Shown here piece after piece: positions 3,670 to 28,986 of a stretch of DNA of 32,000 bases. How positions within the stretch are numbered: position 1 is the stretch's first letter; each line of letters begins with the position of its first letter. The position numbers and the translations under genes are program-made. Location of the stretch: the NCBI RefSeq assembly GCF_018228765.1, contig NZ_CP073695.1:2309218-2341217 (forward strand), given 5' to 3'. Source of the stretch: Halorubrum ruber (GTDB lineage: Archaea > Halobacteriota > Halobacteria > Halobacteriales > Haloferacaceae). The notes under the pieces were generated by a model. That model did not search any database, had not been told where the DNA came from, and saw nothing but the letters and a program-made list of their open reading frames with translations.

Positions 3670-3828
3670 ATGACTACTCTCTCTGATGACGAAGTCACAA
3701 TTTCAAGTGACAAGATTGAACAAATTCGGGAGCGCGTACTGAAAGCAGAAAAAGAGAAACTCCACTTAGATCTCCCACGTGGGATTAATGACGAAATTGA
3801 GCAAATAATTATAGAGGAAATTAACTAA
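3670..3828 (+). CDS. 52-aa small protein, first gene of SMC operon (absent from supplied ORF track)
   Basis: MTTLSDDEVTISSDKIEQIRERVLKAEKEKLHLDLPRGINDEIEQIIIEEIN; stop overlaps the next start (TAATG); TATA box upstream. Confidence 0.65.
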   Translation: MTTLSDDEVTISSDKIEQIRERVLKAEKEKLHLDLPRGINDEIEQIIIEEIN

Positions 3829-6416: not shown

Positions 6417-8903
6417 ATGGAAGAGGAATCCAATACGCCACTTTGTGGCAAAGAGATTTTTCTCTATCCGGGTGACCCGGATGGAACCGGTATGCTAGCG
6501 TACGATACCACCCAATACAGAGATCAGTATGATAATCTTCAGTTTGCAGACAGTACACAATTTATTAGTTCATTAGAAGAGAATATACGCCTTGAAAATC
6601 GTTCTCTCCTCCGCGTAGCAGAGGGAGAGAGATTTGTCGTACCTGAATACCAGCGGAATTTTACTTGGGAAGAGGATCAACATGAGGAACTTTGGAACAC
6701 TATATTATCTATTCAGGACCTAAAGCCGAAAGCGAATAATCTTCCTGTTGATACTTACTTTGGAACTGTGTACGTCGCCCGCGACGCCGACGGAGATGTA
6801 TTCGAGATTATTGACGGTCAGCAGCGTCTGACCACAGTAGCAATTATTCTAAAGAATCTAAAGCAGCAGCTAGAAGCTCGATTCGACAGTATAGATGGGC
6901 AGCTTCTCGAATATGCACAACATGTCTGTGACCGCCATTTAGAGGATCTATTATTCCGTGCTGACGGTCCGGCTATTACTCCCTTCATTACGTTGAATGA
7001 CCACGATCAGCCGTTCTTTGATATTGTGTTTAAAGAGAAAGAGGACCGGATTAAACCAGTAAAAAATCTCCCGCAATATGATGGACGAAAGACAAACTCA
7101 ATCACTGTGCAGTCACTTCTTGATGAACTTGATATCCCAGAAGAAGCATACGAAGAGGATGAAGACTTTGAGGACACTGACATGCTTGAATCGTACCGCT
7201 ACTATGGAGATGCACATAGACGACTCGTTAATGCTGACAAATTCTACAAGAAAAATATTAGACAGTTCATTGAGAAGGATATCTTTGAAACTCCGGCGAC
7301 AAAGGTCCGAGCGTTGCTAAATCTGACTCACTATATTCTCCGTTCCCTTCGCGTCTCAGAATGTATCTTTGAGACTAGTAATCAGGAGCTCCGAATCGAA
7401 GTCTTTCAATCGCTCAACGACCGTGGTGTTGAGTTATCGAATATGGATAAGATTCGAGCTCGTGTTGTGGGGCGATTCCAAGGAGAATCAGATAGTGGTG
7501 TACAGATCGATCGCTGGGAAAGCGTTGTCAAGACGTTTGGAGGAGATTCCGATGATGTTGAAGACTTTCTTGCCCACTATCTTGCAGCGACAGAGAAAGA
7601 ATTCTCTACGGTCACAGAAGCGAAAAACGAAATGCTCGAAGCATTTCGTCTCAAACAAATCGGTCATCACGATATCCAATCGAGACTGGCAAGCCCAGGC
7701 CAGGCTCGGGACTTCTTAGAAGAATTAGTGAATTATGCACAGCGATATCGTGAAATTGTTTCTGCCGATTTGACAGATGACGATTTAGAGCTGAAAGACC
7801 CAGAAAAAAGCGAGTGTGAGGAGATTCTCAAGCGGCTCAACAAACTTGGAACTAAACAGTGGCGGCCGTTCGTGATGTACGTCTACCAAGCGGTGACGGA
7901 AGCCCCACAAAAAGATCAGTTTTTGGTCGATGTCTTGAAAACAGTAGAGAATATCTCGTTCCGATTTTCTATATCGGATCTTGTCGGCACAGTCGTTGAT
8001 GACACTTATCCGGATTCCTGCCAAGAATTTCGAGAGCTTGAGCAGACGGGGAATCAATTTGATTCCGAGGAGGTATCTGAGATTCTTATTGAGAATATCG
8101 ATAATTCTGCACGACAGATGTTCGGCGAATCATTCATCGATCGACTTGTTAGTAAAGAGAGTTGGAACAACAACAAGACAAAACAACTGTACTTGAAGGT
8201 CGCGGATGAAGACTTTAGGAAGAGAAATCAGGTTGGGATCACGAACTCTCACCTCAGTTCAGACTCTAGTGAAGTACATATTGAACACGTACTCCCAGTA
8301 TCATACATTTTGCCTAAGAAAGACCATCCGTATGCGTGGTTAGAGCACTTCTTCCGTAATAACGGAGATAACAAGATTCGCACTCAGATCGATTATCTTC
8401 AGTCACGTGACGCACACGAGCTGTCACCCGGTGACGACGGCTATGATGAGATCGAGCGAATCGTAAATGGAATCGAGGAACGCTTCGTACGTGATCTTGG
8501 AAACATGATTTTGCTTGACGAAGCGGTCAACCGGCCGATTCAGAATCGTCTCTTTTCAGTCAAGCTCAAGGAGTACCACAAAGAGCACAGCAAGGACATG
8601 GAAAACATCATCAACCAATACTTCGGTACTGATGGAGCAATTGACGAAGCGGAACTTCAGCGCTTACTAGCGCTTGATATGCCCGATGATGAGACGAGAT
8701 CTAGTTCTCCCTCACTTGTTCAAGATTTCAACGAGTGGTGGACGTATGAGCGCCTCGTACAACGGAAATCACAGCTAGTGTCTGAAATTTTGGAATCACT
8801 CACATTCCCAACCAGACCAGACGAGTTCGAACCGTTTGTAGATGATATCGAAAATATAGTCGAGGAAGATGTTCAGAAGCGTTTAGCAGTTCTAACTGTC
8901 TAA
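6417..8903 (+). CDS. DUF262-DUF1524 fusion protein (GmrSD/SspE-like putative modification-dependent restriction nuclease)
   Basis: N-terminal VPEYQRNFTWEEDQHEELW and EIIDGQQRLTTVAIIL (DUF262); C-terminal VHIEHVLPVSY and LGNMILLDEAVNRPIQNRLFSVKLKEY (DUF1524, His-Me finger). Confidence 0.88.
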   Translation: MEEESNTPLCGKEIFLYPGDPDGTGMLAYDTTQYRDQYDNLQFADSTQFISSLEENIRLENRSLLRVAEGERFVVPEYQRNFTWEEDQHEELWNTILSIQDLKPKANNLPVDTYFGTVYVARDADGDVFEIIDGQQRLTTVAIILKNLKQQLEARFDSIDGQLLEYAQHVCDRHLEDLLFRADGPAITPFITLNDHDQPFFDIVFKEKEDRIKPVKNLPQYDGRKTNSITVQSLLDELDIPEEAYEEDEDFEDTDMLESYRYYGDAHRRLVNADKFYKKNIRQFIEKDIFETPATKVRALLNLTHYILRSLRVSECIFETSNQELRIEVFQSLNDRGVELSNMDKIRARVVGRFQGESDSGVQIDRWESVVKTFGGDSDDVEDFLAHYLAATEKEFSTVTEAKNEMLEAFRLKQIGHHDIQSRLASPGQARDFLEELVNYAQRYREIVSADLTDDDLELKDPEKSECEEILKRLNKLGTKQWRPFVMYVYQAVTEAPQKDQFLVDVLKTVENISFRFSISDLVGTVVDDTYPDSCQEFRELEQTGNQFDSEEVSEILIENIDNSARQMFGESFIDRLVSKESWNNNKTKQLYLKVADEDFRKRNQVGITNSHLSSDSSEVHIEHVLPVSYILPKKDHPYAWLEHFFRNNGDNKIRTQIDYLQSRDAHELSPGDDGYDEIERIVNGIEERFVRDLGNMILLDEAVNRPIQNRLFSVKLKEYHKEHSKDMENIINQYFGTDGAIDEAELQRLLALDMPDDETRSSSPSLVQDFNEWWTYERLVQRKSQLVSEILESLTFPTRPDEFEPFVDDIENIVEEDVQKRLAVLTV

Positions 8904-9097: not shown

Positions 9098-9757
9098 TCA
9101 GACTGGTTGCTTTACAAACTCTGTTACAACGTAGAACGGAAGCGTATCAATTAGCGCGACAAGCAGCTTCACGATGTACTGCCCAGCGACGATTGAGGCG
9201 AGTGCCCAGCCCCACGTTGGCTCCCCACCAAGGCCGAGTGCCGGGAAGATAGCGAAGCCGAGCGTGATGAACACGATCGTGTCCACGCCTTGACTGACTG
9301 CAGTAGACCCACAGTTCCGAAGCCAGCGATGGCGACCGCCGGTGCGAGTCTTCAGATTGGCGAATAATCGGACGTCGAGATGCTGGGCGAACGCGAGCGC
9401 GACGACGGAGGCGAGGATGATCGATGCGGAGCCGCCAAGCGTCGATACGAACGCGTCTTGTCCACCGTAGAACGGGGCAGACGGCATCCAAATGGCGAGG
9501 AACACGAGCGCATACGCGATGACGAGCGTGACGACGGTTCCGTTGACCACGGTCGCAGCGTACTCTTTCCCGTGGTACTCGACAAGCAGGTCTGAAGCGA
9601 GGTAAGCCACGCCGAAGGCGACGAAACCGGCGGGGACGGCGACGCCCCCAAGCCCGGGGAGCTCGATCCACGTCAGTTTCGCTGCGAGGACGTTTGCGAG
9701 AACGATTGAACCGGCGAACACGGCGGTGAAGATCGCGCGAGTATCCTCAGTCTCCAT
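9098..9757 (-). CDS. queuosine precursor transporter family (DUF165/YhhQ-like)
   Basis: Multi-pass membrane protein; ANVLAAKL...VPAGFVAFGVAYLASDLLVEYHGKEYA...FANLKTRTGGRHRWLRNCGSTAVSQGVDTIVFITLGF is typical of the family. Confidence 0.88.
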   Translation of the reverse strand: METEDTRAIFTAVFAGSIVLANVLAAKLTWIELPGLGGVAVPAGFVAFGVAYLASDLLVEYHGKEYAATVVNGTVVTLVIAYALVFLAIWMPSAPFYGGQDAFVSTLGGSASIILASVVALAFAQHLDVRLFANLKTRTGGRHRWLRNCGSTAVSQGVDTIVFITLGFAIFPALGLGGEPTWGWALASIVAGQYIVKLLVALIDTLPFYVVTEFVKQPV

Positions 9758-9911
9758 CAGCTGTCACCGTCTTGTATGGGCGTACAGTTTCCTGTGGTTC
9801 GCTGTCTTGAGCTGACCCCAGTAGAAACCGGTGCGCAACGACCGATAGGGTAGACGGTGGATGAGTGTGAGTCGGGTTGCTGTTCCATCGGTGAAGTAAC
9901 GAAACTCAATC

Positions 9912-9920
9912 TTTATATAT
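9912..9920 (+). promoter_or_regulatory. TATA box upstream of queD
   Basis: TTTATATAT about 25 bp upstream of the ATG at 9941 (leaderless arrangement). Confidence 0.5.
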
Positions 9921-9940
9921 TCCCCGAATATTCTTCGAGT

Positions 9941-10402
9941 ATGTCCCGAAGTATATCAAGAGATGAATCCGAATCAGACGTCCTTCGTGAGGCCGGCCAA
10001 CGAACCCTCCACATCGGAGAGGATAACCCCATCCGAATTAGCTCGGGCCACCGTATTCTCCACCACGACGGAAAGTGCTCGCGGCCACACGGCCACAACT
10101 ACGAGATCGCCGTCGAAGTTACCGGCGAACTCATCGAAGAGGGGTGGGTCGTCGACAAAGGTGACGTCACAGACGTCATCGACGCGTGGGATCACCGATT
10201 CCTTGTCGAGGAGGGTGACCCGCTCGTCGACGCATTCGAGGCGTCGGGCGACGGCGACGCCCTCGTCGTCCTCGATCACCCACCAACGGCAGAGGTAATG
10301 AGCGTGCTCCTCGAACAGCGAATGCTCGACGCGTTCCCCGACACCGTCTCCGACGTGTCGGTGTCGGTGAGTGAAACCGGCGAGCTCTGTGCGAGTTACT
10401 GA
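9941..10402 (+). CDS. queD: QueD-family 6-carboxy-tetrahydropterin synthase
   Basis: ISSGHRILHHDGKCSRPHGHNYEIAVEVTGE; WDHRFLV; HPPTAEVM; overlaps queE by 1 nt. Confidence 0.88.
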   Translation: MSRSISRDESESDVLREAGQRTLHIGEDNPIRISSGHRILHHDGKCSRPHGHNYEIAVEVTGELIEEGWVVDKGDVTDVIDAWDHRFLVEEGDPLVDAFEASGDGDALVVLDHPPTAEVMSVLLEQRMLDAFPDTVSDVSVSVSETGELCASY

Positions 10403-11178
10403 TGCCAGTCGTAAGCGATGTGGAAGAACCCACAACGGACGCTGACGCGGCTGGTGAGGGCCTCCCAATCAACGAGGTGTTCTACTCGTTGCAGGGTGAG
10501 GGGACGCTCGCAGGCGTTCCCTCTGTCTTCGTGCGGACTTCTGGGTGTAACCTGCGGTGTTGGTTCTGCGATTCCTACCATACGTCGTGGGAGCCGACCG
10601 GCGCGTGGCGCGATGTCGACACGATCGTGGAAGAAGTACAGTCGCACGAACAGGCGAACCACGTCGTACTCACGGGCGGGGAGCCGCTCATCCACGAGGA
10701 GTCCATCGATCTCTTGGAGCGACTCGACGCCGAGGGGTACCACACAACGGTGGAGACAAACGGGACCATCTACCGGGACGCACCAATCGACCTCGCAAGC
10801 ATCAGCCCGAAGCTGGCGAGCAGCACGCCGACGCCGGATCGGGACCCGAAAGGCGAGGGCGAGTGGGAAGAGAAACACGAGCAAAACCGGATCGATATGG
10901 ATGCGTTGTCCCAGATGGTCGACGACTACGAGACGCAACTCAAGTTCGTCGTGACCGATGAGACAGACCTTCCGGAGATTACGGACCTCGTCGATCGAGT
11001 GCGGGCGGCGGCGACGACGACCATTGCTGACGACGACGTGTTGTTGATGCCGGAAGGTATGACGCGGGAGCAACTTGACGGAACGCGAAGCCAGGTGGCA
11101 GAGTTAGCGATGGAGTACGGCTACCGATACACCCCCCGACTCCACGTGGACCTGTGGAATGACGCACCCGGGACATGA
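10402..11178 (+). CDS. queE: 7-carboxy-7-deazaguanine synthase, radical SAM
   Basis: NEVFYSLQGEGTLAGVPSVFVRTSGCNLRCWFCDSYHTSW with CxxxCxxC; VVLTGGEPL; TVETNGT. Confidence 0.92.
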   Translation: MPVVSDVEEPTTDADAAGEGLPINEVFYSLQGEGTLAGVPSVFVRTSGCNLRCWFCDSYHTSWEPTGAWRDVDTIVEEVQSHEQANHVVLTGGEPLIHEESIDLLERLDAEGYHTTVETNGTIYRDAPIDLASISPKLASSTPTPDRDPKGEGEWEEKHEQNRIDMDALSQMVDDYETQLKFVVTDETDLPEITDLVDRVRAAATTTIADDDVLLMPEGMTREQLDGTRSQVAELAMEYGYRYTPRLHVDLWNDAPGT

Positions 11179-11263
11179 ACGTCGCCTTGGTCGGCCCGAC
11201 CGATGGAGTGCCGTGGGGGCGTGGTGAACAGGACGACAATTGACTCAACACAACCGAAAATAC

Positions 11264-11953
11264 ATGAGCAATAAAAGCGCGGTCATTCTGGTTTCTGGCG
11301 GGATGGATAGTGCGACAGCGGTGTACGAAGCAATGGATCAGGGGTACGAGCCGTACTTCCTCCACACCTCATATGGGCAACGCACCGAAGACAAAGAGTA
11401 CGAGTGCGCACAGGCACTTGCCGAGGAGGTCGATGCGGCTGACTTCCTCCACATTGAAACGGGCCATCTCGCACAGATTGGGGCGTCGAGCCTGACGGAC
11501 GAAGAGATGGACGTCGCCGATGCTGACTTGGAGAGCGACGAAATTCCCACGTCGTACGTCCCCTTCCGCAACGCGAATCTACTGTCGATGGCAACATCGT
11601 ACGCAGAGGCGACTGACTCGGAGGCGCTGTTTATCGGAGCCCATTCTGAGGACTTCTCCGGGTATCCGGACTGTCGTCCGGCCTTTTTTGACGCCTTTCA
11701 GCAGGTGATCAACGTCGGAACGAAGCCCGAGACGGAAATCGAGTTGAAAGCGCCGTTCGTCGAGTGGTCGAAAACAGACATCGCTGAGCGTGGGTTAGAA
11801 CTTGGTGTCCCATACGACATCACGTGGTCGTGTTACCGGGACGAAGAGCCGGCGTGCGGGACGTGTGATGCGTGTGCGTTCCGGCTTGAGGCGTTCCGAA
11901 ATGCTGGGTCACGTGACCCGATTGCGTACGCTGAGCGACCTAAGTTTTCGTAA
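11264..11953 (+). CDS. queC: 7-cyano-7-deazaguanine (preQ0) synthase
   Basis: VILVSGGMDSATA PP-loop; VPFRNANLLSMATSYAE; FIGAHSEDFSGYPDCRPAFF; zinc motif SCYRDEEPACGTCDACAFR. Confidence 0.92.
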   Translation: MSNKSAVILVSGGMDSATAVYEAMDQGYEPYFLHTSYGQRTEDKEYECAQALAEEVDAADFLHIETGHLAQIGASSLTDEEMDVADADLESDEIPTSYVPFRNANLLSMATSYAEATDSEALFIGAHSEDFSGYPDCRPAFFDAFQQVINVGTKPETEIELKAPFVEWSKTDIAERGLELGVPYDITWSCYRDEEPACGTCDACAFRLEAFRNAGSRDPIAYAERPKFS

Positions 11954-13006: not shown

Positions 13007-13732
13007 ATGGCTGATGATCCCGATATCATGACGGAGATTCTTGATGATATGAAATTGGATGACGATCGTGTCGATAATGAGTCCACCGATGGTCAATCCC
13101 AAAGTGAAGACATTCCGAATCTAGATGATTTACAAAAAGATGAGCGTCTTGAGCAACTAACCGAAGTAGGTCTTTTAACGGACGAAGAATATGATATACT
13201 GACTGAATATTATGATCGTACCACTAGTTCTGGCCAGCAAGAGTTCGGAACGCCGGTATACACCAGTGAAGGCTCAGAATTTGACTTTTCAATAGTTGGG
13301 GTTTTCCAAGATGTGAATACTAAAATTCTAACACTTCCGGAGTTCCTGAGCGTTGAGGAAGCTGACGATACCGAGACGTGGGATAATGAAGGGGGCCCTG
13401 GTCGAACGATTGTTTGTTTTCAGATTTACAATCACAGCTCCGAAGAAATCATGCTAAAACACAAAAATATCGAATATATCGGAGACAATGGAATTGCGTA
13501 CAATTATGACGGGAATCCATTAGTTAGTGATAGGCTTGAACCAGGCTGGCGAACCGATAACTGGGAATATATCGGACCAGATACAAGAATTCAGTACGCA
13601 TCTGTAATCGAGATGCCTGTGATTCCTGACTCATTGAAGCTCTCCGGATACTGGGAAGATACACATGAAATTGAACTAATAGATGACTTGTTTTTCCCAA
13701 AATCTGATTTACCGACTTCCGTTGAGATTTGA
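13007..13732 (+). CDS. hypothetical protein, acidic N-terminus, SHOCT-like segment, beta-rich C-terminus
   Basis: 241 aa; LEQLTEVGLLTDEEYDILTEYY, then FDFSIVGVFQDV...TIVCFQIYNHSSEEIMLKHKNIEYI resembling DUF4352-like domains. Confidence 0.65.
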   Translation: MADDPDIMTEILDDMKLDDDRVDNESTDGQSQSEDIPNLDDLQKDERLEQLTEVGLLTDEEYDILTEYYDRTTSSGQQEFGTPVYTSEGSEFDFSIVGVFQDVNTKILTLPEFLSVEEADDTETWDNEGGPGRTIVCFQIYNHSSEEIMLKHKNIEYIGDNGIAYNYDGNPLVSDRLEPGWRTDNWEYIGPDTRIQYASVIEMPVIPDSLKLSGYWEDTHEIELIDDLFFPKSDLPTSVEI

Positions 13733-13855: not shown

Positions 13856-15463
13856 CTATCCGGCGAGGAGGTCATATCTACGCTTTACTTCTTGTAATGA
13901 CCCCGTGGATGTCGGAACACCATCAACATCGGCGTCCGGATGATTCCGAGCAGTTTCCGCAAACATCGAAACTCGTTCGAGTTCCTTCCGGATGAGTGTC
14001 CGCTCAATTTCATACTGATCGTCGGACAGCATTTCTGGGTGTCTTTGAGTATCTGGTATTGTGATGAAGTCATGAATTACGGCATATTTTTTACCTTCGT
14101 ATTTTCGAAGGATCCGTCCTCTTCGTTGGACGTATTGTCGTGGATTCGATGTACTTGCTAGGATGTATGCCGTCCGTGTAGCAGGAATATCAACGCCCTC
14201 GTCAAGACATCTAATAGAAGTTAGAACGTCAATTTCTTCCTCATCGAACCGTGTCAACAGCTGTTTTCGTTCCTGTTGATTTTCGCGTGCGGTAAAGCGC
14301 TCAACAGACAAGTTACACTCATTTCGGATTCTCTCTGTTGTCAGGTCTACGTGACGCTGTAATTGGCCATCAACCTCCAATTTGCCATCACTACAGTAGA
14401 CAAGCGTGTGCTTGGTATCTATCTCAGAATTCAATAAATCAATAAGCAAGAATAGCTTCTCACGAGCGGTACCAATTAATCGAGCTCTTTTAAAAAGAGC
14501 TTGCTGTAAAGCAGGATTCTGTTCAAGATTCAAATTCCCTTCTTTGTCATTCGATTTCCCTGCAAGTCGACCGATCTTTGTGGTCAAACGCATGTACTCC
14601 TCCATCTCTTCGTCCTGTAATTCGACTATATGGGGAATGTAGTAATACTCACATAGTGCACCGGCTTCGATAGCTTTCTCAAGTCCATATTCAAAAACGG
14701 TTCCTCCAAAATATGCATCCAATTCTTTCGTCCCTTCTTCATCATACCATCTTTCTGGCGTTGCCGAAAGACCAAGTCGGAGGTCAAACTGATCACTAAG
14801 TGCCTCCTGTGTCTGAGCAGCACCCATATGGTGTACTTCATCTGCAATCAGCATTGAATTCCCGTTAGCCCTTCGAATTGTTTTTCTCGCAGATTCTCCT
14901 GACAGCGTTCGGTGTGTTGTAACTACTACGCAGGTGTCACGCATTCCGTTGTTGAATTCTAGCAGCTCACGTTCAAGCCGAGGTTGCCAATTACGTCGTG
15001 ATTCAAAGGCAAGAACAGGGGTAGCACCGAAATCATCGAGGTTAGATTTCCACTGATTAACGAGATGTTGATATGGCACTGCGACGACGAGCAGGAATTT
15101 TTTATCGACAGACTGATCCACACGCGTCGCGGCAAGGAGGGCTGTGACCGTTTTACCAGTCCCTGTTGCCATTTCTAGTATTCCCTTTCCTCCGGCAGAC
15201 ATCCACTCTTGTATTGCTTCTTGTTGATATGGACGGGCTTCTATCCAATCAGGAACGTGGAGGCCCTCATGAGACATCTTATCTACCTCAAAATGGCCCG
15301 CTGATATATATCTAAGCCGTGATGTTAAATTCACCAAAGTTAGGATTCCAAAAGCATCCTTAGCGAGAGTTCGAGTTGTTTTGGTCAAGAGAAGATTTGG
15401 TAACGAGTACTCTTTTACCTCCTCGGGATCGATACGGTTGCAATGACAACGCTTCTGGTACAA
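13856..15463 (-). CDS. SF2 DEAD/DEAH (SSL2/XPB-like) helicase, resembling Dnd-system restriction helicases
   Basis: GILEMATGTGKTVTALLAA; MLIADEVHHMGA; LGLSATPERWYDEEGT; TSIRCLDEGVDIPATRTAYILASTSNPRQYVQRRGRILRKYEGKKYAVIHDFI. Start could instead be the internal Met near 15277. Confidence 0.85.
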   Translation of the reverse strand: MYQKRCHCNRIDPEEVKEYSLPNLLLTKTTRTLAKDAFGILTLVNLTSRLRYISAGHFEVDKMSHEGLHVPDWIEARPYQQEAIQEWMSAGGKGILEMATGTGKTVTALLAATRVDQSVDKKFLLVVAVPYQHLVNQWKSNLDDFGATPVLAFESRRNWQPRLERELLEFNNGMRDTCVVVTTHRTLSGESARKTIRRANGNSMLIADEVHHMGAAQTQEALSDQFDLRLGLSATPERWYDEEGTKELDAYFGGTVFEYGLEKAIEAGALCEYYYIPHIVELQDEEMEEYMRLTTKIGRLAGKSNDKEGNLNLEQNPALQQALFKRARLIGTAREKLFLLIDLLNSEIDTKHTLVYCSDGKLEVDGQLQRHVDLTTERIRNECNLSVERFTARENQQERKQLLTRFDEEEIDVLTSIRCLDEGVDIPATRTAYILASTSNPRQYVQRRGRILRKYEGKKYAVIHDFITIPDTQRHPEMLSDDQYEIERTLIRKELERVSMFAETARNHPDADVDGVPTSTGSLQEVKRRYDLLAG

Positions 15464-15877
15464 TCCTGTTCAGACACCAAAAACTCAGTCTCTACGCCCA
15501 CTCCGGCTCTTGATGTATATGATGGATATTTTTATAAAATTATCAAGAAGGCTATAAGAGAAGGAGAGTTTCGATCTGATATCGATATTCGAATTCTATC
15601 TGCAAAGCATGGTCTTCTCAAACCTAATGAGAAGATTCGATCCTATGACCGCCAGATGACTCAATCACGAGCTGCGGACCTTCGAGAGTCTGTCACAATG
15701 AATCTACAAGAACTGGTACAACAAAAGGAATACAACCGGATCGTTCTTAATATGGCCCGCGAGTATCGAAGTTCAATCGGAGAAATTCATGATTACCAAG
15801 GGCAAGTGAGTGAGATCTCTGGGAGTGGTATTGGCGAAAAGGGTGGGAAACTCAAGAAGTTCATCCGGGGAGACTGA
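15443..15877 (+). CDS. DUF6884-like small protein
   Basis: MTTLLVQSCSDTKNS...DIRILSAKHGLLKPNEKIRSYDRQMT...YNRIVLNMAREYRSSI; first gene of the TGT/GHKL operon. Confidence 0.65.
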   Translation: MTTLLVQSCSDTKNSVSTPTPALDVYDGYFYKIIKKAIREGEFRSDIDIRILSAKHGLLKPNEKIRSYDRQMTQSRAADLRESVTMNLQELVQQKEYNRIVLNMAREYRSSIGEIHDYQGQVSEISGSGIGEKGGKLKKFIRGD

Positions 15878-15881
15878 CTGA

Positions 15882-17123
15882 ATGGGATTCAAACAAAAAC
15901 AGCATGATAATAATGGATTTGAGATTGCTAATCAAGCAGGAGCAGCACGCACTGGGACACTCCAAGTTGGAGACACAGAATTAAAAACACCAAATCTCTT
16001 TCCTGTAGTGAATTTCTACGCAGGGGGGACCTCATCAAGCCTGTACGGGGGAGGCATACATCGCACAATGAAGGAGTTCATGAACGGAGATGAAGTCATA
16101 AACGGCGGTGACTACAGCGAATACTTTGACGGCGTGATGACGTCTGTGGCTTCTTTAACTGACTACGGGATAACAAAAGAGCGATATGAAGAGTACATTG
16201 ACACTCCAATCAAGGAGAGAGACCTGTTTGATTTTGACGGCGTTCTATTTATTGATTCAGGGGGGTTCAAATTCCTCGGAGACAAGACATTGGATGGTAG
16301 TGATTTTGAAGTCGATGTCGATCAGAGGACAATTATAGAGATTCAACGTAAGCTTGGTGCTGACCTCGTTTTGAATCTTGACCGCCCAATTGAGCCTGAT
16401 GATGATTACGAAACTCGGATTCAAAAAGCACGTATGACGGCACAAAATGTCGATCAATTCCTTGAATTGACTGACCGACAGAAACAGACACGGTACCTAA
16501 CTCTTCATGGGTACAACTACTCTATGCTGAATACGTTTCTCACCGAGATTGAGAAAGTAATTGGAAAAAACCGTGTACACCGAGAATTTGACGGCGTAGC
16601 TCTCGGAAGCCTGGTTCCGCTTAAAGATAACAAGGGTAAGTTGATCACTGCGGTGAGCGACTGCAGAGAAGTCCTCGACGACTGGGGCTTTGATGATCTT
16701 CCATTACACGTCCTTGGTATTTCTTCAAGCGCAATTCCACTGCTTGCAGCAGTTGGTGCGGATACATTCGACTCATCGTCTTATCTTCACGCTGCAATTA
16801 ACGGGAAGTATCATACGTCGTTGTACAATACAGAACCGCTTGATGACGTTGATTTCTCAAACTGTGATTGCCCAGTCTGCTCTGACGACAAGCTTGTGAA
16901 TTGGATGGAGGGTGATGCCGAGTATCAGAAAGACAAGCTTGGAGCAGTATCAATGCATAACCTCATAATACAGAAAGAGGAAATCAGTCGCGTTAGGGAA
17001 GCAATCAGCAAGTCGGGAACCGACGGTTTGATTGAATATTTCGAACAATCGCTCAGCCGTCACAAATCGATGCAGCAGCATGCACACAGGGTTGTGAATG
17101 ATTCTCTTGGAGGATACTTCTAA
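15882..17123 (+). CDS. TGT/DpdA-like transglycosylase 1 (putative 7-deazaguanine DNA insertion enzyme)
   Basis: GAARTGTL; LFIDSGGFKFLG; VALGSLVPL; LHVLGISSSAIPLLAAVGADTFDSSSY (predicted nucleophile Asp); CDCPVC...SMHNLIIQKEEISRVREAI (zinc site pattern). No PUA domain. Confidence 0.82.
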   Translation: MGFKQKQHDNNGFEIANQAGAARTGTLQVGDTELKTPNLFPVVNFYAGGTSSSLYGGGIHRTMKEFMNGDEVINGGDYSEYFDGVMTSVASLTDYGITKERYEEYIDTPIKERDLFDFDGVLFIDSGGFKFLGDKTLDGSDFEVDVDQRTIIEIQRKLGADLVLNLDRPIEPDDDYETRIQKARMTAQNVDQFLELTDRQKQTRYLTLHGYNYSMLNTFLTEIEKVIGKNRVHREFDGVALGSLVPLKDNKGKLITAVSDCREVLDDWGFDDLPLHVLGISSSAIPLLAAVGADTFDSSSYLHAAINGKYHTSLYNTEPLDDVDFSNCDCPVCSDDKLVNWMEGDAEYQKDKLGAVSMHNLIIQKEEISRVREAISKSGTDGLIEYFEQSLSRHKSMQQHAHRVVNDSLGGYF

Positions 17124-17125
17124 CA

Positions 17126-18679
17126 ATGTCAACAACAAAAACTCCCCAGGTAAATGAAGTAAACGAGTTCCTAGAAATTGCGAGTGACTTCGAAGATCCG
17201 CTCGAAGTAATCCGTGAATCCCTGTCTAATAGCTACGATGCAGGGGCTACTGAGGTCGAGATTACGATTAGAGACAGACCGATTGGATCCGAGATCGTGA
17301 TCGAAGATGATGGTGACGGGATGGACTATGCTGACCTAGAATCCTTCTTCGATTTGGGCAATTCGACGAAACGAGACCCGTCCTCTGATGCCATCGGCTA
17401 CAAAGGACATGGGACAAAAATATTCTATAAAAGCGAGGAGGTACTCGTCAATACTTCCAAAGAAGGAACGAATCTCCGTGCGCAAATGGAACAGCCCTGG
17501 GAAAAACTCAACAACCGAGTAATGCCTGAATACGAAGTTAGAGAACGCTCGGTGAAGGAGGGTAATAACGGGACTCACATCCGCATTACCGGATTCAAAT
17601 CCGGACGTGGATTCTCTCCTTCCTCACTTACTTATAATAAAATTGAACACTATTTGAAATGGAAGACGCTTGCAGGATCCACCGCTCACTACTTCACAGA
17701 TGACTATCACGAGATGGATATATATATCACGTTGGGTGACGAGATCGACGATACCCAGGAAACGCTCAAATTAGATAATAAACTCGAATTTCCCGATGAA
17801 CAGATTGAGCCCGGAGAAGGAAAATTTCCGGAATCAAGGATGTGTAAGCACTATCCACCTCGTGAGCTGACGGTGGAGACTGATGACGGAGATACAGCAA
17901 TTATCGAAGTAGTAGGCATGATTGGTGGGAAAGATGCTCGCAACGAACTCCCAACATACGGGAAGCATTCAGCGCAATTCGGGATCTGGCTTGCTAAGGA
18001 TTATATCAAAGTCGAACGTGTCAACGAAGTCATCTCACATGACAACGAGTTCCTCCACTTCTTTTTCGTGGCAAACTGCCAAGATATTGAGCTCTCTGCG
18101 AACCGTGAGAAAATCCGGAACAAATCGAGCTCTATCTACCAAGCAATTAAAGAAGAATTGAGCCACTATCTTTCCAAAATAGCTTCTGATCCTTGGTTCA
18201 AGGATTATCTCAATCAGCGACGAAAGGCCAAACTCTCGCGTCGAGCAGAATCTCAACAGTCTTCAGTCGAAGACCGTGAGAAGCGAATTCTCGATCGTGA
18301 GCAGTTTACTCCCTCTAATGATGCTGAGGTAGTTCTCGGTCTTGAAAGATCAAACCGGGAAGGTGCTCTCCCTAAGATTGTCGTTGAGGACTACGACCCC
18401 AGTGTAGAGGTTAACGCACTCGTCAAGCAGGATGATTCACTCTATGCGAGTTCGATCCATCATAAACTCACAGACCATTTTGAGGCAGACAAGCCTTTGG
18501 AGTCTGTTGATAAAATCATCTGCTGGTCGTATGGTGACCCCGACCAACTGAGTGAACTTGAGCGTCATGGATATCATGGGGGAGATATCACATTTGACCT
18601 CAATACAGGTCGGATTGAGTATCAGAACGGTCGAAAGCATAATATCCATATCGTTTCTGTCGAACAACGGTTTCAGTAG
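17126..18679 (+). CDS. GHKL ATPase (MORC/Hsp90-like N-terminal fold)
   Basis: VIRESLSNSYDAGATEVEI (N box), IVIEDDGDGMDYADLESFF, AIGYKGHGTKIFY, GTHIRITGF, ELSANREKIRN; starts 2 nt after the TGT 1 stop. Confidence 0.85.
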   Translation: MSTTKTPQVNEVNEFLEIASDFEDPLEVIRESLSNSYDAGATEVEITIRDRPIGSEIVIEDDGDGMDYADLESFFDLGNSTKRDPSSDAIGYKGHGTKIFYKSEEVLVNTSKEGTNLRAQMEQPWEKLNNRVMPEYEVRERSVKEGNNGTHIRITGFKSGRGFSPSSLTYNKIEHYLKWKTLAGSTAHYFTDDYHEMDIYITLGDEIDDTQETLKLDNKLEFPDEQIEPGEGKFPESRMCKHYPPRELTVETDDGDTAIIEVVGMIGGKDARNELPTYGKHSAQFGIWLAKDYIKVERVNEVISHDNEFLHFFFVANCQDIELSANREKIRNKSSSIYQAIKEELSHYLSKIASDPWFKDYLNQRRKAKLSRRAESQQSSVEDREKRILDREQFTPSNDAEVVLGLERSNREGALPKIVVEDYDPSVEVNALVKQDDSLYASSIHHKLTDHFEADKPLESVDKIICWSYGDPDQLSELERHGYHGGDITFDLNTGRIEYQNGRKHNIHIVSVEQRFQ

Positions 18680-18733: not shown

Positions 18734-20755
18734 ATGGCATCGTTTGAGACTACATCTTCTGACGAGGCCGGTAATGCTCGAACCGGAACTCTCCACACTC
18801 CTCACGGTGATGTGGAAACGCCAGCGTTCTTCCCAGTTGTCAATTTCATAGGCGGACCAGATGAGAAATCAGGGGGAATATGGAGCCGACTTCGGAATCA
18901 CCTATTCGGCGAACCGGATTTTCAGGGAGCGATGTTTCAAGCGATGAGCTTCCTCGATTTTAACATCTCTCCCGATTCTCTCGATAACTGGCGATCAAAG
19001 TCTCTTCATGAGCATTTCACTGGGCATGAGCCAGTTAAGCCATATCATGATCAGCCGGAAGACTTTACCAAGCCGTTGTTTGTTGACTCTGGCGGATTCA
19101 AACTGCTGAATTCCGATACGTTCGGAGATAGACCTGAGGAGGGTGGTTCAGATAACGACTGGTCGATATACACCAATCCTGAGAGCATCCTTGAATTACA
19201 ACTTGACTACGGCGCGGACATAATTGCCACACTAGATTACCCCATTCCACCGAATCTCAACGAGGAAGAGACGACTCAGCGAATGGAAGACAGTATTGAT
19301 AGTGCTATACGCTGTCTTGAGCTTCTTGAACAAAGAGATGAGTCACCAGCAGTCTATGTGGCCATTCATGGCCACGACTACGAAACGATCAACTGGTATG
19401 TTGGTACGTTTCTTGACCGGGCAGGAGACCTTGACAACGCGTTCGAAGGGTTTGCAGTAGGGTCGCTAGTTCCACTCCGCACCAACGTAGAAACACTCGT
19501 TGATATTGTACAGGGTGCGAAGGATGCAATTCCTGAAAATCGGGTAGACGACCTCGGACTGCACCTGTTCGGCATTAGTGGGAAGTTCACTGCACTTCTT
19601 GCTCTTCTGGGTGCAGACTCGTTCGATTCATCTAGCTACATCCGTGCTGCCCAATTCAAGAAATTCATCAACCGCGAAATCGGTGTTGACGACGGTACGA
19701 CCGTTCGGCACCCAGATTCGGATAGCCACGATCTTGGCGATTTTGGTGTCGACATAGAACGGACATCTGAAGCGCGCTGGGCAGCGGACTGGTCAAAGTT
19801 CTCTGCCGATCAGATCCCCGACGACTGGGATTGCCAGTGCTCAGCTTGCGAAGCACTCCGCGAGATTGGGTATGACCAGATGCAGTCCACCCTATTCGAC
19901 AGCAAATCGTATGACCAGAGCGGAGATCATATGAAGAGCGATTTCTACGCGCTAATGGGGTATCACAACTTCCACGTTTATCAAGACGAGATGGACTATG
20001 TCCGCAATCTTATCCAACAGGGAGATGGTGAACTCCTCGACTACGTCGCTAAGATGGCCCGTAATGATGTAGGCGGCATTAGACAGGCACTCAAACGGGC
20101 TACTGTCCGCGACAGAGATTTGGCTACAGAACTCCGAGAACGTGGTTACGACAGACTCGTCGCTGAACGGGCGGACGGAGAGCAGGAACGCCTCAATGTC
20201 GACCTTCCGGTTGAAAGCCACGAGATCTCTCTTGAGTACACGCCCGAGGACTTCAATGTCTTAGAGCGTGACGACTATTGTCCGGGTGACGAACGAGTAC
20301 TTCTGATCATACCCTGCAGTCAAACCAAGCCGTACTCAAATTCCCGCACTCACCGAGTAGTCGCTGACGCGACTACCGAATGGAAGGATGAAATACACAA
20401 AGTCACCGTTTCAGGGATGTACGGTCCTGTCCCTGAAGAATTTGAGAATATTTCACCGATCAAATCATACGAATACGTCCTAACTGATGCCGAAACAGAC
20501 CGTCAGAATCTCATCAAAAATCGACTCGTCGAATATTTAAATCGTTTTGGCGGTGACTTCGATGTAATTGTTGGCTACGCCACGAGTAAGACATATCGTG
20601 AAGTCATCAAGCGATCCTTGGAAGAGTATGGCGAAGGTGTAGTTTTGCCTCGTGAACCCGAAATGCGAGCGTTGACAGAACACTTCCGTACAACGAATCT
20701 TCAGCAATTGGCAGACTATCTTGAGGAAGAATTAGCACCCCAAACCCGGAATTAG
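18734..20755 (+). CDS. TGT/DpdA-like transglycosylase 2 fused to DUF5591-like C-terminal domain
   Basis: NARTGTLHTPHGDVETPAFFPVVNFIGG; LFVDSGGFKLLNS; FAVGSLVPL; LHLFGISGKFTALLALLGADSFDSSSY; CQCSAC...MGYHNFHVYQDEM; C-term ERVLLIIPCSQTKPYSNS...IKSYEYVLTDAETDRQ...FDVIVGYATSKTYREVIKRSL. Confidence 0.82.
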   Translation: MASFETTSSDEAGNARTGTLHTPHGDVETPAFFPVVNFIGGPDEKSGGIWSRLRNHLFGEPDFQGAMFQAMSFLDFNISPDSLDNWRSKSLHEHFTGHEPVKPYHDQPEDFTKPLFVDSGGFKLLNSDTFGDRPEEGGSDNDWSIYTNPESILELQLDYGADIIATLDYPIPPNLNEEETTQRMEDSIDSAIRCLELLEQRDESPAVYVAIHGHDYETINWYVGTFLDRAGDLDNAFEGFAVGSLVPLRTNVETLVDIVQGAKDAIPENRVDDLGLHLFGISGKFTALLALLGADSFDSSSYIRAAQFKKFINREIGVDDGTTVRHPDSDSHDLGDFGVDIERTSEARWAADWSKFSADQIPDDWDCQCSACEALREIGYDQMQSTLFDSKSYDQSGDHMKSDFYALMGYHNFHVYQDEMDYVRNLIQQGDGELLDYVAKMARNDVGGIRQALKRATVRDRDLATELRERGYDRLVAERADGEQERLNVDLPVESHEISLEYTPEDFNVLERDDYCPGDERVLLIIPCSQTKPYSNSRTHRVVADATTEWKDEIHKVTVSGMYGPVPEEFENISPIKSYEYVLTDAETDRQNLIKNRLVEYLNRFGGDFDVIVGYATSKTYREVIKRSLEEYGEGVVLPREPEMRALTEHFRTTNLQQLADYLEEELAPQTRN

Positions 20756-21013: not shown

Positions 21014-21568
21014 ATGACACAAAATGCTATCAGCGAAGAGGAAAGCAGAGAAGAATTGTACGAGACAGTTGTTCATATACTCAGTGAGCAGTTTTCGTAC
21101 AACATGACGCCCGCTGAAGCAGTGGACTACCTCGCTGTGGAGAAAGCTGGTGTTGCGACCGGAAAATGGGCAGACGTCCGTGAAGTCGCTCACTCAACCG
21201 TAAGCGGAAACGTCAGCGGTGCCAGAGACAAAATCAATATGAACCGCCTTGATGCCGAAGTAACAAACGAGGACGATCAAATCGTGGTCAGGGTGGCCGA
21301 TCAGGATGACGAGAAGCATGAACTTCAGTTCCAAAAAGAGACATCCGTAATGGGGAGGGAGACCACTGCCACGCTAACACTCGTGTATGAAGCGATGAGG
21401 GCAGTGCATGGGCATTACATTGGTGACGATGGTACGGAGTTTGAGTCAACATTATGGTTCGATGGCCGGATGACAAGCTCATTCGAGGAGTTCGACTTCA
21501 GGGGTGAATGGGGTTCACCAGAAGCTAAGGCAGATTCGATTCTGTGGAGCCGAGACTCTGGCCAATAG
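21014..21568 (+). CDS. hypothetical haloarchaeal protein with putative N-terminal HTH
   Basis: 184 aa; MTPAEAVDYLAVEKAGVATGKWADVREVAHSTVSGNVSGARDKI resembles a sigma-70-like or WhiA-like HTH. Confidence 0.55.
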   Translation: MTQNAISEEESREELYETVVHILSEQFSYNMTPAEAVDYLAVEKAGVATGKWADVREVAHSTVSGNVSGARDKINMNRLDAEVTNEDDQIVVRVADQDDEKHELQFQKETSVMGRETTATLTLVYEAMRAVHGHYIGDDGTEFESTLWFDGRMTSSFEEFDFRGEWGSPEAKADSILWSRDSGQ

Positions 21569-22093: not shown

Positions 22094-22861
22094 ATGACAT
22101 CCGATCAAATTGCTGCGTACGTACGAGCATCCACCGACAAGCAAGAGACATCCCACCAGCGGGACGATATCAACGAATGGGCCAAGCAAAACGGACATGC
22201 TCCGACCGAGATTGAGTGGTACGTCGACCTCGCGGAATCAGGTAGCGACCCCGGGCGCAAACAATTCAATTCACTCATCGACGACGTCGAAGCAGGCAAT
22301 TATGAGCGGGTGATCACGTGGGAGATCAGTCGATTATCGAGACTCGGGAGCACGTATCAGCGATTCTTTGAAGTGGCAGCTGACGCCGACACGATCGTGA
22401 ATGTCACGAACGGGTGGACAGACACTATCCTACCCGACGGCACCGGCAAGCTCATCGCAGATATAAGCGCGGCAGTTGCCGAGGAGGAACGCAGAAAGCT
22501 CATCAGTCGGATCAATTCAGGAGTAAAAAGAGCACGAAAAGAGGGCAAGTGGTTGGGCGAAGTTCCCACGGGATTTGACCGGAACGAACTGGGATACCTA
22601 CGACCACTAATCAACCCAGGAGAGGGCAAAGTGGGATACCTCGAAATGCGGGAAGCGCTCGTCGACATCGAGGAGGGAGAGTCATACAATTCTGCAGCTG
22701 CATCGATGGCGACGACCCGACAGACGTTGAGCCGAATCGATCAGGATGACGAGCGGCGATCATGGTACCTTGACGGACGAGCCGAGGACGATCGTGTCGC
22801 TGAAGCTCTCGAAACAGTGTCGAGTAGTAGCGATAACTTGAGGACTCCGACAGACTCCTAG
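22094..22861 (+). CDS. serine recombinase / resolvase
   Basis: IAAYVRASTDKQETSHQRDDI; VITWEISRLSRLGSTYQRFF; AAVAEEERRKLISRINSGVKRARKEGKWLGEVPTGF; C-terminal HTH. Confidence 0.93.
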   Translation: MTSDQIAAYVRASTDKQETSHQRDDINEWAKQNGHAPTEIEWYVDLAESGSDPGRKQFNSLIDDVEAGNYERVITWEISRLSRLGSTYQRFFEVAADADTIVNVTNGWTDTILPDGTGKLIADISAAVAEEERRKLISRINSGVKRARKEGKWLGEVPTGFDRNELGYLRPLINPGEGKVGYLEMREALVDIEEGESYNSAAASMATTRQTLSRIDQDDERRSWYLDGRAEDDRVAEALETVSSSSDNLRTPTDS

Positions 22862-23294: not shown

Positions 23295-23777
23295 ATGTCA
23301 AGACCTCTTCCCGCTGATTGGAGAAACCGACGTAGAGAAATTCTCCGCAGAGATGATTACATGTGTCGGAATTGCGAAAGACATGAGGATATGCGAAACG
23401 TCTCGCTCGAAGTCCATCATATTGTTCCACGTCGTCGAGGCGGAACCCATGAAAAGTACAACCTCGTTACGATGTGCAGTCACTGCCATGACCGAGTACA
23501 TAATGGTGATGTGGAAACACCAGACGATCCGTTAGGATATATTGACCGTATAAAACAAGAAGTGAGGAGCTTTCGGTGGCGACAAGCGAATATCACAGAT
23601 ATCGACGCACAGTCTATTGCCAGAACAGTTGCCGGGTCATTCCCGGACCCCACCTCGATTCAAACTCATACGTCATTAAGAGATACTCTCAGAAATCCTC
23701 CGCAACGAACATTCCCCAACTTTTTGCTCGATATTGGTTATCATGTGACAGAAAGAGAGGCCACTTGTGCTGAGTGA
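23295..23777 (+). CDS. HNH endonuclease
   Basis: RREILRRDDYMCRNCERHEDMRNVSLEVHHIVPRRRGGTHEKYNLVTMCSHCHDRVHNG. Confidence 0.93.
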   Translation: MSRPLPADWRNRRREILRRDDYMCRNCERHEDMRNVSLEVHHIVPRRRGGTHEKYNLVTMCSHCHDRVHNGDVETPDDPLGYIDRIKQEVRSFRWRQANITDIDAQSIARTVAGSFPDPTSIQTHTSLRDTLRNPPQRTFPNFLLDIGYHVTEREATCAE

Positions 23778-28901: not shown

Positions 28902-28986
28902 GCGCGGGTTGCCGAGCCAGGCCAAAGGCGTAGCGCTTAGGACGCTATCCCGTAGGGGTCCGCCGGTTCGAATCCGGTCCCGCGCA
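28902..28986 (+). tRNA. tRNA-Leu, anticodon TAG
   Basis: Acceptor GCGCGGG/CCCGCGC plus discriminator A; anticodon stem-loop TAGCG-CTTAGGA-CGCTA; variable arm CCCGTAGGGG; T-arm GGTTCGAATCC; 85 nt, class II. Confidence 0.93.

Follow-up and report, generated by a model that had tools for sequence, protein, structure and literature searches.

What does an ATPase of the GHKL superfamily do among genes for deazaguanine chemistry? The question is raised by a stretch of 32,000 nucleotides from the haloarchaeon Halorubrum ruber (RefSeq assembly GCF_018228765.1, contig NZ_CP073695.1, positions 2,309,218 to 2,341,217), called the window here in its full length, in which a gene for such an ATPase, at 17126-18679, lies between two genes for guanine transglycosylase-like (TGT-like) enzymes, TGT1 and TGT2. 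The answer that we favor, with a probability of roughly one half, is that its product is the ATPase and DNA-handling subunit of a haloarchaeal Dpd-like module for 7-deazaguanine modification of DNA, where it would act as a functional, non-homologous analogue of the bacterial protein DpdB derived from a GHKL-nuclease defense protein. The genes on which the argument turns are the following, with positions counted in the window.

15443-15877, plus strand: DUF6884 protein, 144 aa, net basic, with a CSxxK motif in common with DUF5591; related to DpdC and to the ArcS C1 domain
15882-17123, plus strand: TGT1, the catalytic TIM barrel alone, arcTGT-like (Pfam TGT, 1.3e-27)
17126-18679, plus strand: GHKL ATPase, ATG start, 517 aa, third gene of the DUF6884-TGT1-GHKL unit
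18734-20755, plus strand: TGT2, a TGT domain (2.7e-31) plus DUF5591, the ArcS C1 domain (3e-19)
9098-11953: putative preQ0 supply block of yhhQ (9098-9757, minus strand), queD (9857-10402), queE (10402-11178) and queC (11240-11953), with Pfam matches to Vut_1, PTPS, Radical_SAM and QueC

The GHKL gene is real and strongly constrained, since its homologues extend across many haloarchaeal genera; they number 261 at E ≤ 1e-3, and among these the 120 that were listed have lengths of approximately 500-530 aa and identities of 57-99%. Its ATG at 17126 is separated from the TGT1 stop codon (TAA, 17121-17123) by the dinucleotide CA, the gap of 2 nt to which an earlier reading of the window made without database searches (the sequence-only reading) had pointed, and GGAGG is located 11-16 nt 5' of the ATG. 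A Pfam scan placed HATPase_c_3 (3.4e-17, 63 bits against a cutoff of 25) and HATPase_c (2e-7) within aa 25-123, and the complete set of GHKL ATP-binding motifs, already recognized by the sequence-only reading, proved invariant in 73 homologues: the N box E31xxxN35xxD38, whose E31 motif is the VIRES of that reading, the G1 box D61xGxG65, the G2 box G91xKGxGTK98 and G149-T150 of motif IV. By these motifs of the Bergerat fold the protein is a member of the GHKL superfamily.

An exhaustive HMMER search extended the set to 558 relatives at E ≤ 1e-3, many of them only 26-39% identical and aligning nearly end to end, which indicates that the three-part architecture described below predates the haloarchaeal family. 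No curated family in NCBIfam, PADLOC or PHROGs takes in the protein; its best matches there (BbrUII/HgiDII restriction endonuclease, MutL, MzaB, TmtA and phrog_6203) are all partial and far below their cutoffs, and the PDB sequences that match it best, over aa 18-92, are those of MutL and MORC2. A mainly viral origin of the family is not supported, as phage GenBank records gave no match and IMG/VR held only three relatives, at 26-28% identity and none with a TGT. One member of the haloarchaeal family (P0084, 60% identity) lies on a 5-kb contig labelled Streptomyces sanglieri in NCBI, probably through contamination of the assembly.

An AlphaFold model built from the 73-sequence alignment reached a mean local confidence (pLDDT) of 86.4 and a predicted TM score (pTM) of 0.71, with low confidence for the lid at aa 85-95, and divides the protein into four segments.

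aa 1-130 (17126-17515, plus strand): N-terminal strap and Bergerat (GHKL) ATP-binding fold
aa 131-335 (17516-18130, plus strand): transducer (S5-like) domain
aa 336-391 (18131-18298, plus strand): long helix, modelled as helices 336-353 and 356-390
aa 392-517 (18299-18676, plus strand): C-terminal domain of 126 aa, alpha-beta-beta-beta-alpha-beta with three additional beta strands

Conservation within the family is highest in blocks of the transducer domain (HYLKWKT, QFGIWLAKD and LSANREKIRNK). The proteins of the window are strongly acidic by charge analysis, and the sole net-positive segment of the GHKL protein, YLNQRRKAKLSRRAE, lies in the long helix. When the model was compared with the PDB by Foldseek, some 415-430 columns aligned to the GHKL and middle domains of Hsp90, MORC2/3/4 and GyrB-43K (E-values of 1e-12 to 1e-14), with the lowest root-mean-square deviation, about 6 Å, to the MORCs. 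With a modelled transducer directly after the GHKL domain, the protein is a GHKL+S5 module of the MORC/MutL/GyrB/Hsp90 type. Its earlier description as MORC-like is supported only at the level of this architecture; Hsp90 and GyrB fit equally well, and no curated family threshold was reached. For the MORC family proper, profile matches to MORC2/3/4 were weak (E 0.007-0.06) and restricted to aa 22-92.

The context of the gene was examined in related loci, found by scanning one genome per species and compared by tblastn with the proteins of the window and by clustering all of their open reading frames (ORFs); context was detected by tblastn, from precomputed Pfam hits and on short metagenome contigs. 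The 33 loci obtained come from Halorubrum, Halopenitus, Natronocalculus, Haloprofundus, Halosimplex, Halarchaeum, Haloplanus, Haloarchaeobius, Halovenus, Natronorubrum, Halorussus, Natrinema, Haloarcula, Halorutilales, Natronosalvus, Salinigranum and Salinibaculum; they include two metagenome-assembled genomes (MAGs) of Nanohaloarchaea and one locus on a plasmid. In all 33 the genes for DUF6884, TGT1 and GHKL follow one another in fixed order on one strand, with stops and starts that abut or overlap, and the DUF6884 gene was found in 34 of 34 loci. TGT2 is the variable element, lying within 10 kb in 29 of the 33, upstream or downstream and on either strand, and missing from L018, L020, L029 and L030.

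Because the position, strand and presence of TGT2 vary, the GHKL gene is the third gene of a fixed unit and not an insertion. The proposal that it had been inserted between two TGT-like genes describes the layout of the window and was rejected as a general description. The sequence-only reading had also allowed that the gene might turn out not to be conserved beside TGT-like genes; the adjacency holds in 33 of 33 genome loci and recurs in distant relatives, so that this objection falls. Pairwise distances among GHKL proteins correlate most closely with those of TGT1 (r = 0.955), followed by TGT2 (0.87), DUF6884 (0.74) and QueC (0.58), and queDEC, with or without yhhQ, is a neighbor of the module at roughly 15 of the 34 loci.

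The two Nanohaloarchaea MAGs that bear the module (L029 and L030) are from Danakil (DAL-WCL). The legend to Fig. 3 of a bioRxiv preprint on haloarchaeal and nanohaloarchaeal viruses of Danakil (10.1101/2025.02.15.638363) names "Hsp90", "Queuine TGT", "GIY-YIG" and "7-cyano-7-deazaguanine synthase" as genes on its maps of viral genomes; the gene given there as "Hsp90" may belong to the GHKL family of the window.

The C-terminal domain gives a first indication of where the protein came from. The sequence-only reading had found nothing recognizable in a C-terminal region of 140 aa, and our searches agree for the last ~126 aa. Pfam gave no match for 30 C-terminal fragments and nothing besides HATPase_c, hence no DUF4263, in 10 remote full-length relatives; a PDB sequence search gave no match; and Foldseek with the domain modelled by itself (pLDDT 95) gave nothing significant against the PDB (best E 0.11, TM ≤ 0.27) or BFVD (best E 0.066). 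The weak Foldseek matches were enriched in restriction endonucleases, Holliday-junction resolvases and VRR-NUC proteins, which is a hint only.

The remote relatives were more informative. A large set of them share an invariant signature in this domain, consisting of a Glu in helix 1, "DY" in strand 1, "GxD" in strand 2, "ExK" in strand 3 and then "NH", which, on a matching alpha-beta-beta-beta-alpha-beta topology, is the classic E..D..ExK of enzymes with the PD-(D/E)xK restriction-endonuclease fold. A profile of these nuclease-motif C-termini matched PDB sequences only spuriously (TrpRS), and HHalign aligned the haloarchaeal C-termini to them with 95.8% probability (E 7e-9, 123 columns). In that alignment the family of the window retains the helix-1 Glu (E401) and DY (D422-Y423), while the Asp of "GxD" corresponds to N433 and varies in the family (N/H/T/P/E), "ExK" falls in a gap and "NH" is gone; the haloarchaeal domain has no invariant Lys. 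From this pattern of motif loss we infer a nuclease-derived domain that is probably catalytically dead.

The loss follows the linkage to TGT genes. In a metagenome scan of 79 loci, with motif states assigned by regular expressions and checked by eye, the Asp and ExK were absent from 16 of 16 TGT-linked GHKL genes, as in the family of the window, whereas all 33 stand-alone genes with enough flanking sequence kept at least the Asp and Glu, and none of these had a TGT neighbor. The stand-alone set comprised 21 genes with strict GxD..ExK, 5 with ND/TD..ExExK/R variants and about 11 lacking the Lys only. Seven solitary relatives (L034, on a Caballeronia plasmid, L036, L037, L039, L046, L051 and L053) have the Asp/Glu nuclease residues and no TGT. 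In a crude neighbor-joining tree at least three positions are taken by TGT-linked forms (the haloarchaeal family together with the relative P0127, P0133 alone, and the P0159 clade), with the deep branches poorly resolved.

These data bear on the possibility that the GHKL protein is an active nuclease, cutting unmodified DNA at a rearranged site (the conserved E401, E407, E421, D422 and D471) and making DUF6884-TGT1-GHKL a minimal but complete restriction-modification (R-M) system. The alpha1 Glu and the Asp of "DY" are indeed kept as in the nuclease-motif relatives, further acidic residues are invariant, the weak fold matches lean toward restriction endonucleases, and the core is conserved even at loci that show no other nuclease. 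But the beta2 Asp has given way to variable residues (N/H/T/P/E), ExK falls in a gap, NH is lost and an invariant Lys is missing, and the Asp and Glu present in 33 of 33 stand-alone relatives are lost in every TGT-linked form. We therefore regard an active nuclease as improbable, and with it the effector role that the sequence-only reading had entertained.

Beyond the haloarchaeal family the association with TGT genes takes another form. Five relatives, all approximately 30% identical to the GHKL protein of the window (P0133 in L038, P0159 in L044, P0162 in L045, P0174 in L047/48 and P0163 in L049/50), are directly adjoined by a gene for a TGT+DUF5591 fusion, and the same pair occurs in nine further metagenome loci. 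The fusion gene is mostly upstream on the same strand, with a gap or overlap of a few nucleotides, and queC/D/E and folE2 are usually close by. The remote fusions retain both catalytic Asp residues, the Zn motif and the ArcS motif PCx3KPYx2Sx2H. In two of these loci, on metagenome contigs unrelated to each other, genes for AIPR (abortive infection phage resistance) proteins follow the TGT-DUF5591/GHKL/que cluster (L038, 10583-12754; L044, 8719-10590), with SNF2 or UvrD helicases as well, and these AIPR-bearing clusters may be a distinct Dpd-like defense system of uncultured organisms. A further relative (P0127 in L035, 39% identity) has a DUF6884 gene 2 nt upstream (L035, 4047-6145) and no TGT on its 12-kb contig, which suggests that DUF6884 and GHKL can work as a pair; that contig, with Cdc6/Orc1 and many small ORFs, is virus- or plasmid-like.

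Which substrate would such a module act on? Competence of a TGT was judged by the two catalytic Asp residues (D95 and D249 in arcTGT) and the Zn site CxCxxC...H, which TGT1 and TGT2 both possess. TGT1 retains DSGGF (D125), FDSSSY (D297) and CxCxxC...H, and is closest to the arcTGT structure 1iq8 (2.7e-24), to which both catalytic Asp and the Zn site align; Pfam and NCBIfam found no tRNA-binding C-terminal domains in it. It exceeds the NCBIfam threshold for the TGT superfamily (88.7 against 47.6), stays below those for DpdA (NF041059, 29.7 against 200 bits) and the TgtA equivalog, and matches the PADLOC model of DpdA at 2e-6. We regard it as a candidate DNA guanine transglycosylase and DpdA analogue.

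TGT2 likewise keeps both catalytic Asp, DSGGF, FDSSSY and CxCxxC in its TGT domain, and carries the motif PCx3KPYx2Sx2H, defined for the C1 domain of ArcS (PMC5699537), as PCSQTKPYSNSRTH. Pfam detected no PUA domain, and its score against the ArcS model NF040592 is 82.8 bits against a cutoff of 440; with the motif kept, the PUA domain missing and the score far below the cutoff, TGT2 appears to have an ArcS-type catalytic domain and not to be a canonical ArcS. A DUF5591-only protein, ArcS2, converts dPreQ0 to dG+ in DNA when co-expressed with phage DpdA2 (PMC10516641).

The DUF6884 protein is a candidate for the enzyme that acts on preQ0 in DNA at its nitrile group. It matches PF21818 (8e-14, 52.4 bits against a cutoff of 30), DUF5591 weakly, the PADLOC model of DpdC in part (8.7e-7, aa 7-92 against positions 39-119 of 319) and PDC-M57A at 3e-9. 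DUF6884 has been reported as the domain of DpdC (PMC11888242), which turns preQ0-DNA into ADG-DNA (PMC10164549). A DpdA homologue in Haloarcula vallismortis was mentioned in passing by Hutinet et al. (PMC6884629).

The yhhQ-queD-queE-queC block has a G+C content of 0.56-0.61 against 0.43-0.50 in its surroundings, as if of separate origin from the TGT and GHKL genes; despite this difference it travels with the module in the ~15 other loci noted above.

The same enzymes might be taken to act on tRNA, in an archaeosine-type pathway, or on small-molecule deazapurines, with the GHKL protein as a chaperone, regulator or kinase that has nothing to do with DNA. TGT1 is nearest to a tRNA arcTGT, TGT2 has the ArcS catalytic motif, que genes also serve the synthesis of archaeosine in tRNA (PMC5699537), and the GHKL superfamily includes chaperones and kinases. 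Nevertheless, the C2/PUA tRNA-binding domains are missing from both TGT1 and TGT2, the module occurs in low-GC islands beside a tRNA gene, with a recombinase and defense genes, and DpdJ/DpdK-like proteins, GmrSD, GIY-YIG nucleases and restriction helicases of the phosphorothioation type recur nearby. Its patchy, island-like and plasmid-borne distribution is also unlike that of a housekeeping tRNA enzyme, and we consider an RNA or small-molecule substrate the least probable of the explanations weighed here.

The module is surrounded by genes of restriction type that differ from locus to locus. A DpdJ-like helicase (PADLOC, 1e-43) together with a DpdK-like PLD nuclease (1.5e-11) occurs in 11 of 34 loci, the window not among them, and these homologues tie the module to Dpd-type systems. 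GIY-YIG nucleases were found in nine loci, an HNH-like protein in seven, a STAND-like NTPase pair in six to eight and GmrSD in several. PbeA-like helicases are present in six loci in addition to the window and its closest relative, L001; the type of SF2 helicase encoded in the window itself (13856-15463) is confined to those two, so that it was rejected as part of the system and is better seen as a variable neighbor outside the core. At least one nuclease candidate lies within 10 kb in 25 of 34 loci, and L024 (the plasmid), L026 and L033 have que-TGT2-DUF6884-TGT1-GHKL alone, with no nuclease.

Two recurrent neighbors of the module matched little in the databases. One is a 414-aa protein with the pattern PD...(30 aa)...VVVEAKG and no Pfam or PADLOC match, which stands right after TGT2 or GHKL in nine loci (L002-L007, L015-L017 and L031 being the loci named; for example L007, 13683-14927, minus strand); this protein is possibly a new restriction enzyme of the PD-(D/E)xK type that belongs with the module. 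The other is a conserved cassette, made up of four unknown genes and lying downstream of the module in six loci (L003-L005, L007, L017 and L025; for example L004, 15484-19205); one of the four genes has weak Cmr3-like (RAMP) PADLOC matches (2.6e-5).

Neighbors of this kind could mean that the place of the GHKL protein is on the side of restriction or sensing. It would then be an ATP-driven clamp of the MORC/paraMORC type that scans DNA or loops it, recognizes sites where guanine is unmodified, and calls in or licenses the changing set of nucleases and helicases encoded nearby. GHKL+S5 proteins of the paraMORC type, with family-specific C-terminal domains, form part of R-M operons alongside SF2 helicases, nucleases and AIPR (PMC2292703), and nuclease candidates within 10 kb, in 25 of 34 loci as stated, sometimes stand directly after the GHKL gene (GIY-YIG in L022; DpdK/J-like in L018, L020 and L030), as AIPR does in L038 and L044; the stand-alone relatives, moreover, resemble single-protein nuclease defenses. 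Against this, the GHKL gene is translationally coupled to TGT1 or TGT-DUF5591 and to no nuclease, the nuclease partners differ by locus and are absent from L024, L026 and L033, the nuclease residues of the GHKL protein itself are lost specifically in the TGT-linked forms, and its distance matrix tracks that of TGT1 most closely. That the GHKL gene stays constant while nucleases and helicases come and go groups it with the modification genes, and a sensor on the restriction side seems to us unlikely, if the most serious of the alternatives.

Of the three roles that the sequence-only reading had offered, loading or otherwise assisting the transglycosylases fits best, while that of an effector is disfavored by the lost nuclease residues. 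That reading was also borne out in its statement that a GHKL ATPase is no standard component of described bacterial dpd clusters, as the described DpdA-K systems use the ParB-like DpdB. For bacterial DpdA, insertion of preQ0 into DNA depends on DpdB and its hydrolysis of ATP. DpdB forms a homodimer that is predicted to encircle the DNA, and its C-terminal domain is a homologue of the SspE nuclease domain without the catalytic motif (PMC10164549). PADLOC and Pfam revealed no DpdB (ParB/DndB-like) in the window or among the recurrent neighbors of the module. The conserved core contains no ATPase other than the GHKL protein. A module that lacks DpdB and has instead one invariant, TGT-coupled ATPase of clamp fold with a disabled nuclease-derived domain is the basis for our proposal that this protein is an analogue of DpdB, a proposal that presumes DNA as the substrate, physical interaction of the proteins, dependence on ATP and inactivity of the nuclease domain.

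On this proposal, queDEC and YhhQ would provide preQ0, and binding of ATP would dimerize the GHKL protein through its N-terminal strap and GHKL domains, as in MORC, MutL, GyrB and Hsp90. The transducer domains, the basic helix and the inactive nuclease-derived C-terminal domains might then grip or distort duplex DNA, such that the target guanine is offered to TGT1, or elsewhere, in lineages with TGT2-type fusions, to the TGT domain of these, and swapped for preQ0. The DUF6884 enzyme and the ArcS-C1 domain of TGT2, to which the GHKL protein would likewise give access to the base in duplex DNA, would subsequently act on the nitrile, with dADG or dG+ as possible products, and hydrolysis of ATP would reset the clamp. 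The GHKL family itself would descend from stand-alone GHKL-nuclease defense proteins by loss of the nuclease active site.

Several considerations weigh against assigning the GHKL protein this role. The DpdA2 of phage nt-1 inserts preQ0 by itself, with no dedicated ATPase (PMC10516641), so that an ATPase is no general requirement for the reaction. GHKL/paraMORC proteins of R-M loci have been proposed to serve the restriction side (PMC2292703), and an AIPR gene follows the GHKL gene in the two remote loci L038 and L044. High mirror-tree correlations would result from shared inheritance of an operon alone, without physical contact between the products. The description of the C-terminal domain as nuclease-dead rests on motif loss and a profile alignment, for a nuclease fold that has no significant structural match. 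Finally, since the deep branches of the neighbor-joining tree are poorly resolved, the TGT-linked lineages may share one ancestral loss of the nuclease, and the contrast of 16 with 33 genes is therefore not equivalent to 49 independent observations.

More broadly, and more tentatively than for the GHKL protein of the window, we suggest that these loci may represent a new class of DNA 7-deazaguanine writer in archaea and uncultured prokaryotes, in which the TGT is either split (DUF6884 and TGT1) or fused to ArcS-C1 and is joined by an obligatory GHKL clamp ATPase domesticated from an inactivated nuclease defense protein, convergent with DpdA-DpdB. Dpd systems were known already, as were GHKL/paraMORC proteins in R-M loci. 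The literature searched, outside of which lie most subscription journals, describes no GHKL/MORC partner together with deazaguanine, DpdA, DUF5591 or AIPR, and TGT, queuine and transglycosylase go unmentioned in Iyer, Abhiman and Aravind 2008 (PMC2292703). In the accessible literature, then, the GHKL-Dpd combination, a GHKL protein in the place of DpdB, the two-gene module of TGT-ArcS-C1 and GHKL of uncultured lineages, and the systematic loss of nuclease residues in TGT-linked forms all appear to be undescribed.

The need of bacterial DpdA for an ATPase still awaits an explanation, as is acknowledged in the discussion of PMC10164549. If our reading is correct, the haloarchaeal module would offer an independent system in which to dissect the need for ATP in base exchange, and a second, unrelated ATPase recruited by a TGT and bearing a disabled nuclease would argue that ATP-driven clamping or opening of DNA is generally required for base exchange in the duplex. 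It would also be the first MORC-type ATPase to serve a base-exchange enzyme, giving such GHKL ATPases a new client and tracing a route from single-protein nuclease defense to an accessory subunit of a modification enzyme, and it would extend Dpd-like 7-deazaguanine modification to archaeal chromosomes and plasmids. Many haloarchaea that can be cultivated, Halorubrum, Haloferax prahovense, Natrinema and Halosimplex among them, are predicted on this reading to have dPreQ0, dADG or dG+ in their DNA, which would bear on their genetics, on restriction barriers and on nanopore base-calling.

The remainder of the window places the module in what looks like a genomic island. G+C content is 0.43-0.52 from ~3 to 28.9 kb, interrupted by the block of 0.56-0.61 at 9-12 kb, and 0.58-0.73 in the flanks. 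Because the content jumps from ~0.55 to ~0.69 exactly at a tRNA-Leu gene (28902-28986), the region looks like an island integrated at that tRNA gene. The closest locus is L001, from Halorubrum sp. GN11_10-6_MGM, with 95% protein identity, and a scan of the window with Rfam found nothing. Other genes of the island are the following.

3828-5858: AAA_23/AAA_15 (SMC/OLD-like) ATPase, one of a second defense-type pair
6417-8903: GmrSD-type DUF262+DUF1524 enzyme, the other member of that pair
13856-15463, minus strand: SF2 helicase of the phosphorothioation-restriction/PbeA type, divergent from the DUF6884 gene
22094-22861: serine recombinase
23295-23777: HNH protein

The SF2 helicase matches PADLOC PbeA at 2e-165, over the C-terminal two thirds of the model only, and NCBIfam TIGR04095 ("DNA phosphorothioation system restriction enzyme") with 560 bits against a cutoff of 600; no dnd or pbe genes were found among the window ORFs scanned. 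Its longest ORF overlaps the start of the DUF6884 gene by 21 nt on the opposite strand, and the real start is therefore probably further downstream. GmrSD-type enzymes attack modified DNA; the one in the window lies beside the putative DNA-modification module, and L017, L020 and L032 also have GmrSD homologues close to theirs. Two ORFs beside the module, 13007-13732 and 21014-21568 (both plus strand), have no match in Pfam, PADLOC or NCBIfam, and the first encodes an extremely acidic product, with a net charge of -45 over 241 aa.

How, finally, does the system compare with those already known? With the N-terminal ATPase of MutL the GHKL protein shares its GHKL+transducer architecture and its best sequence-level PDB and NCBIfam matches, over motifs I-II, but these span only ~60 residues and are far below family cutoffs, and the protein has neither the C-terminal dimerization/endonuclease domain of MutL nor a mismatch-repair context. 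The prokaryotic MORC/paraMORC GHKL+S5 ATPases are similar in that a family-specific C-terminal domain, in some cases of restriction-endonuclease fold with E-D-ExK, follows GHKL+S5, and in having SF2 helicases, PLD or restriction-endonuclease-fold nucleases and AIPR as neighbors (PMC2292703); they differ in that their linked modification enzyme is a methylase, where that of the window is a guanine transglycosylase, and the nuclease motif is lost in the protein of the window. Its stand-alone relatives share with VcSduA and paraMORC3-type Shedu proteins the layout of GHKL, clamp-like middle and C-terminal E..D..ExK. DUF4263 was found by Pfam in neither the GHKL protein nor the 10 relatives, however, and unlike Shedu the protein is operonic with TGT genes and has lost its nuclease residues.

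Among the partner enzymes, the DUF6884 protein differs from DpdC in length (144 aa against ~320 aa), and TGT2 shares the C1 motif with ArcS and the DUF5591 domain with ArcS2 but, in contrast to ArcS, has an apparently intact TGT domain and no PUA domain. DpdB itself, whose function has been demonstrated where that of the GHKL protein is deduced from genomic association, is ParB-like with a DGQQR motif, in contrast to GHKL+transducer; the two have no sequence similarity and unrelated ancestry, and the PADLOC model of DpdB is unmatched by the GHKL protein, so that the resemblance is one of analogy. It consists in an ATPase encoded beside a TGT paralogue, DNA-acting in the one case and putatively so in the other, and a DpdC-type enzyme, and in the pairing, in both proteins, of a module that dimerizes or would dimerize with ATP and a degenerate nuclease-like domain.

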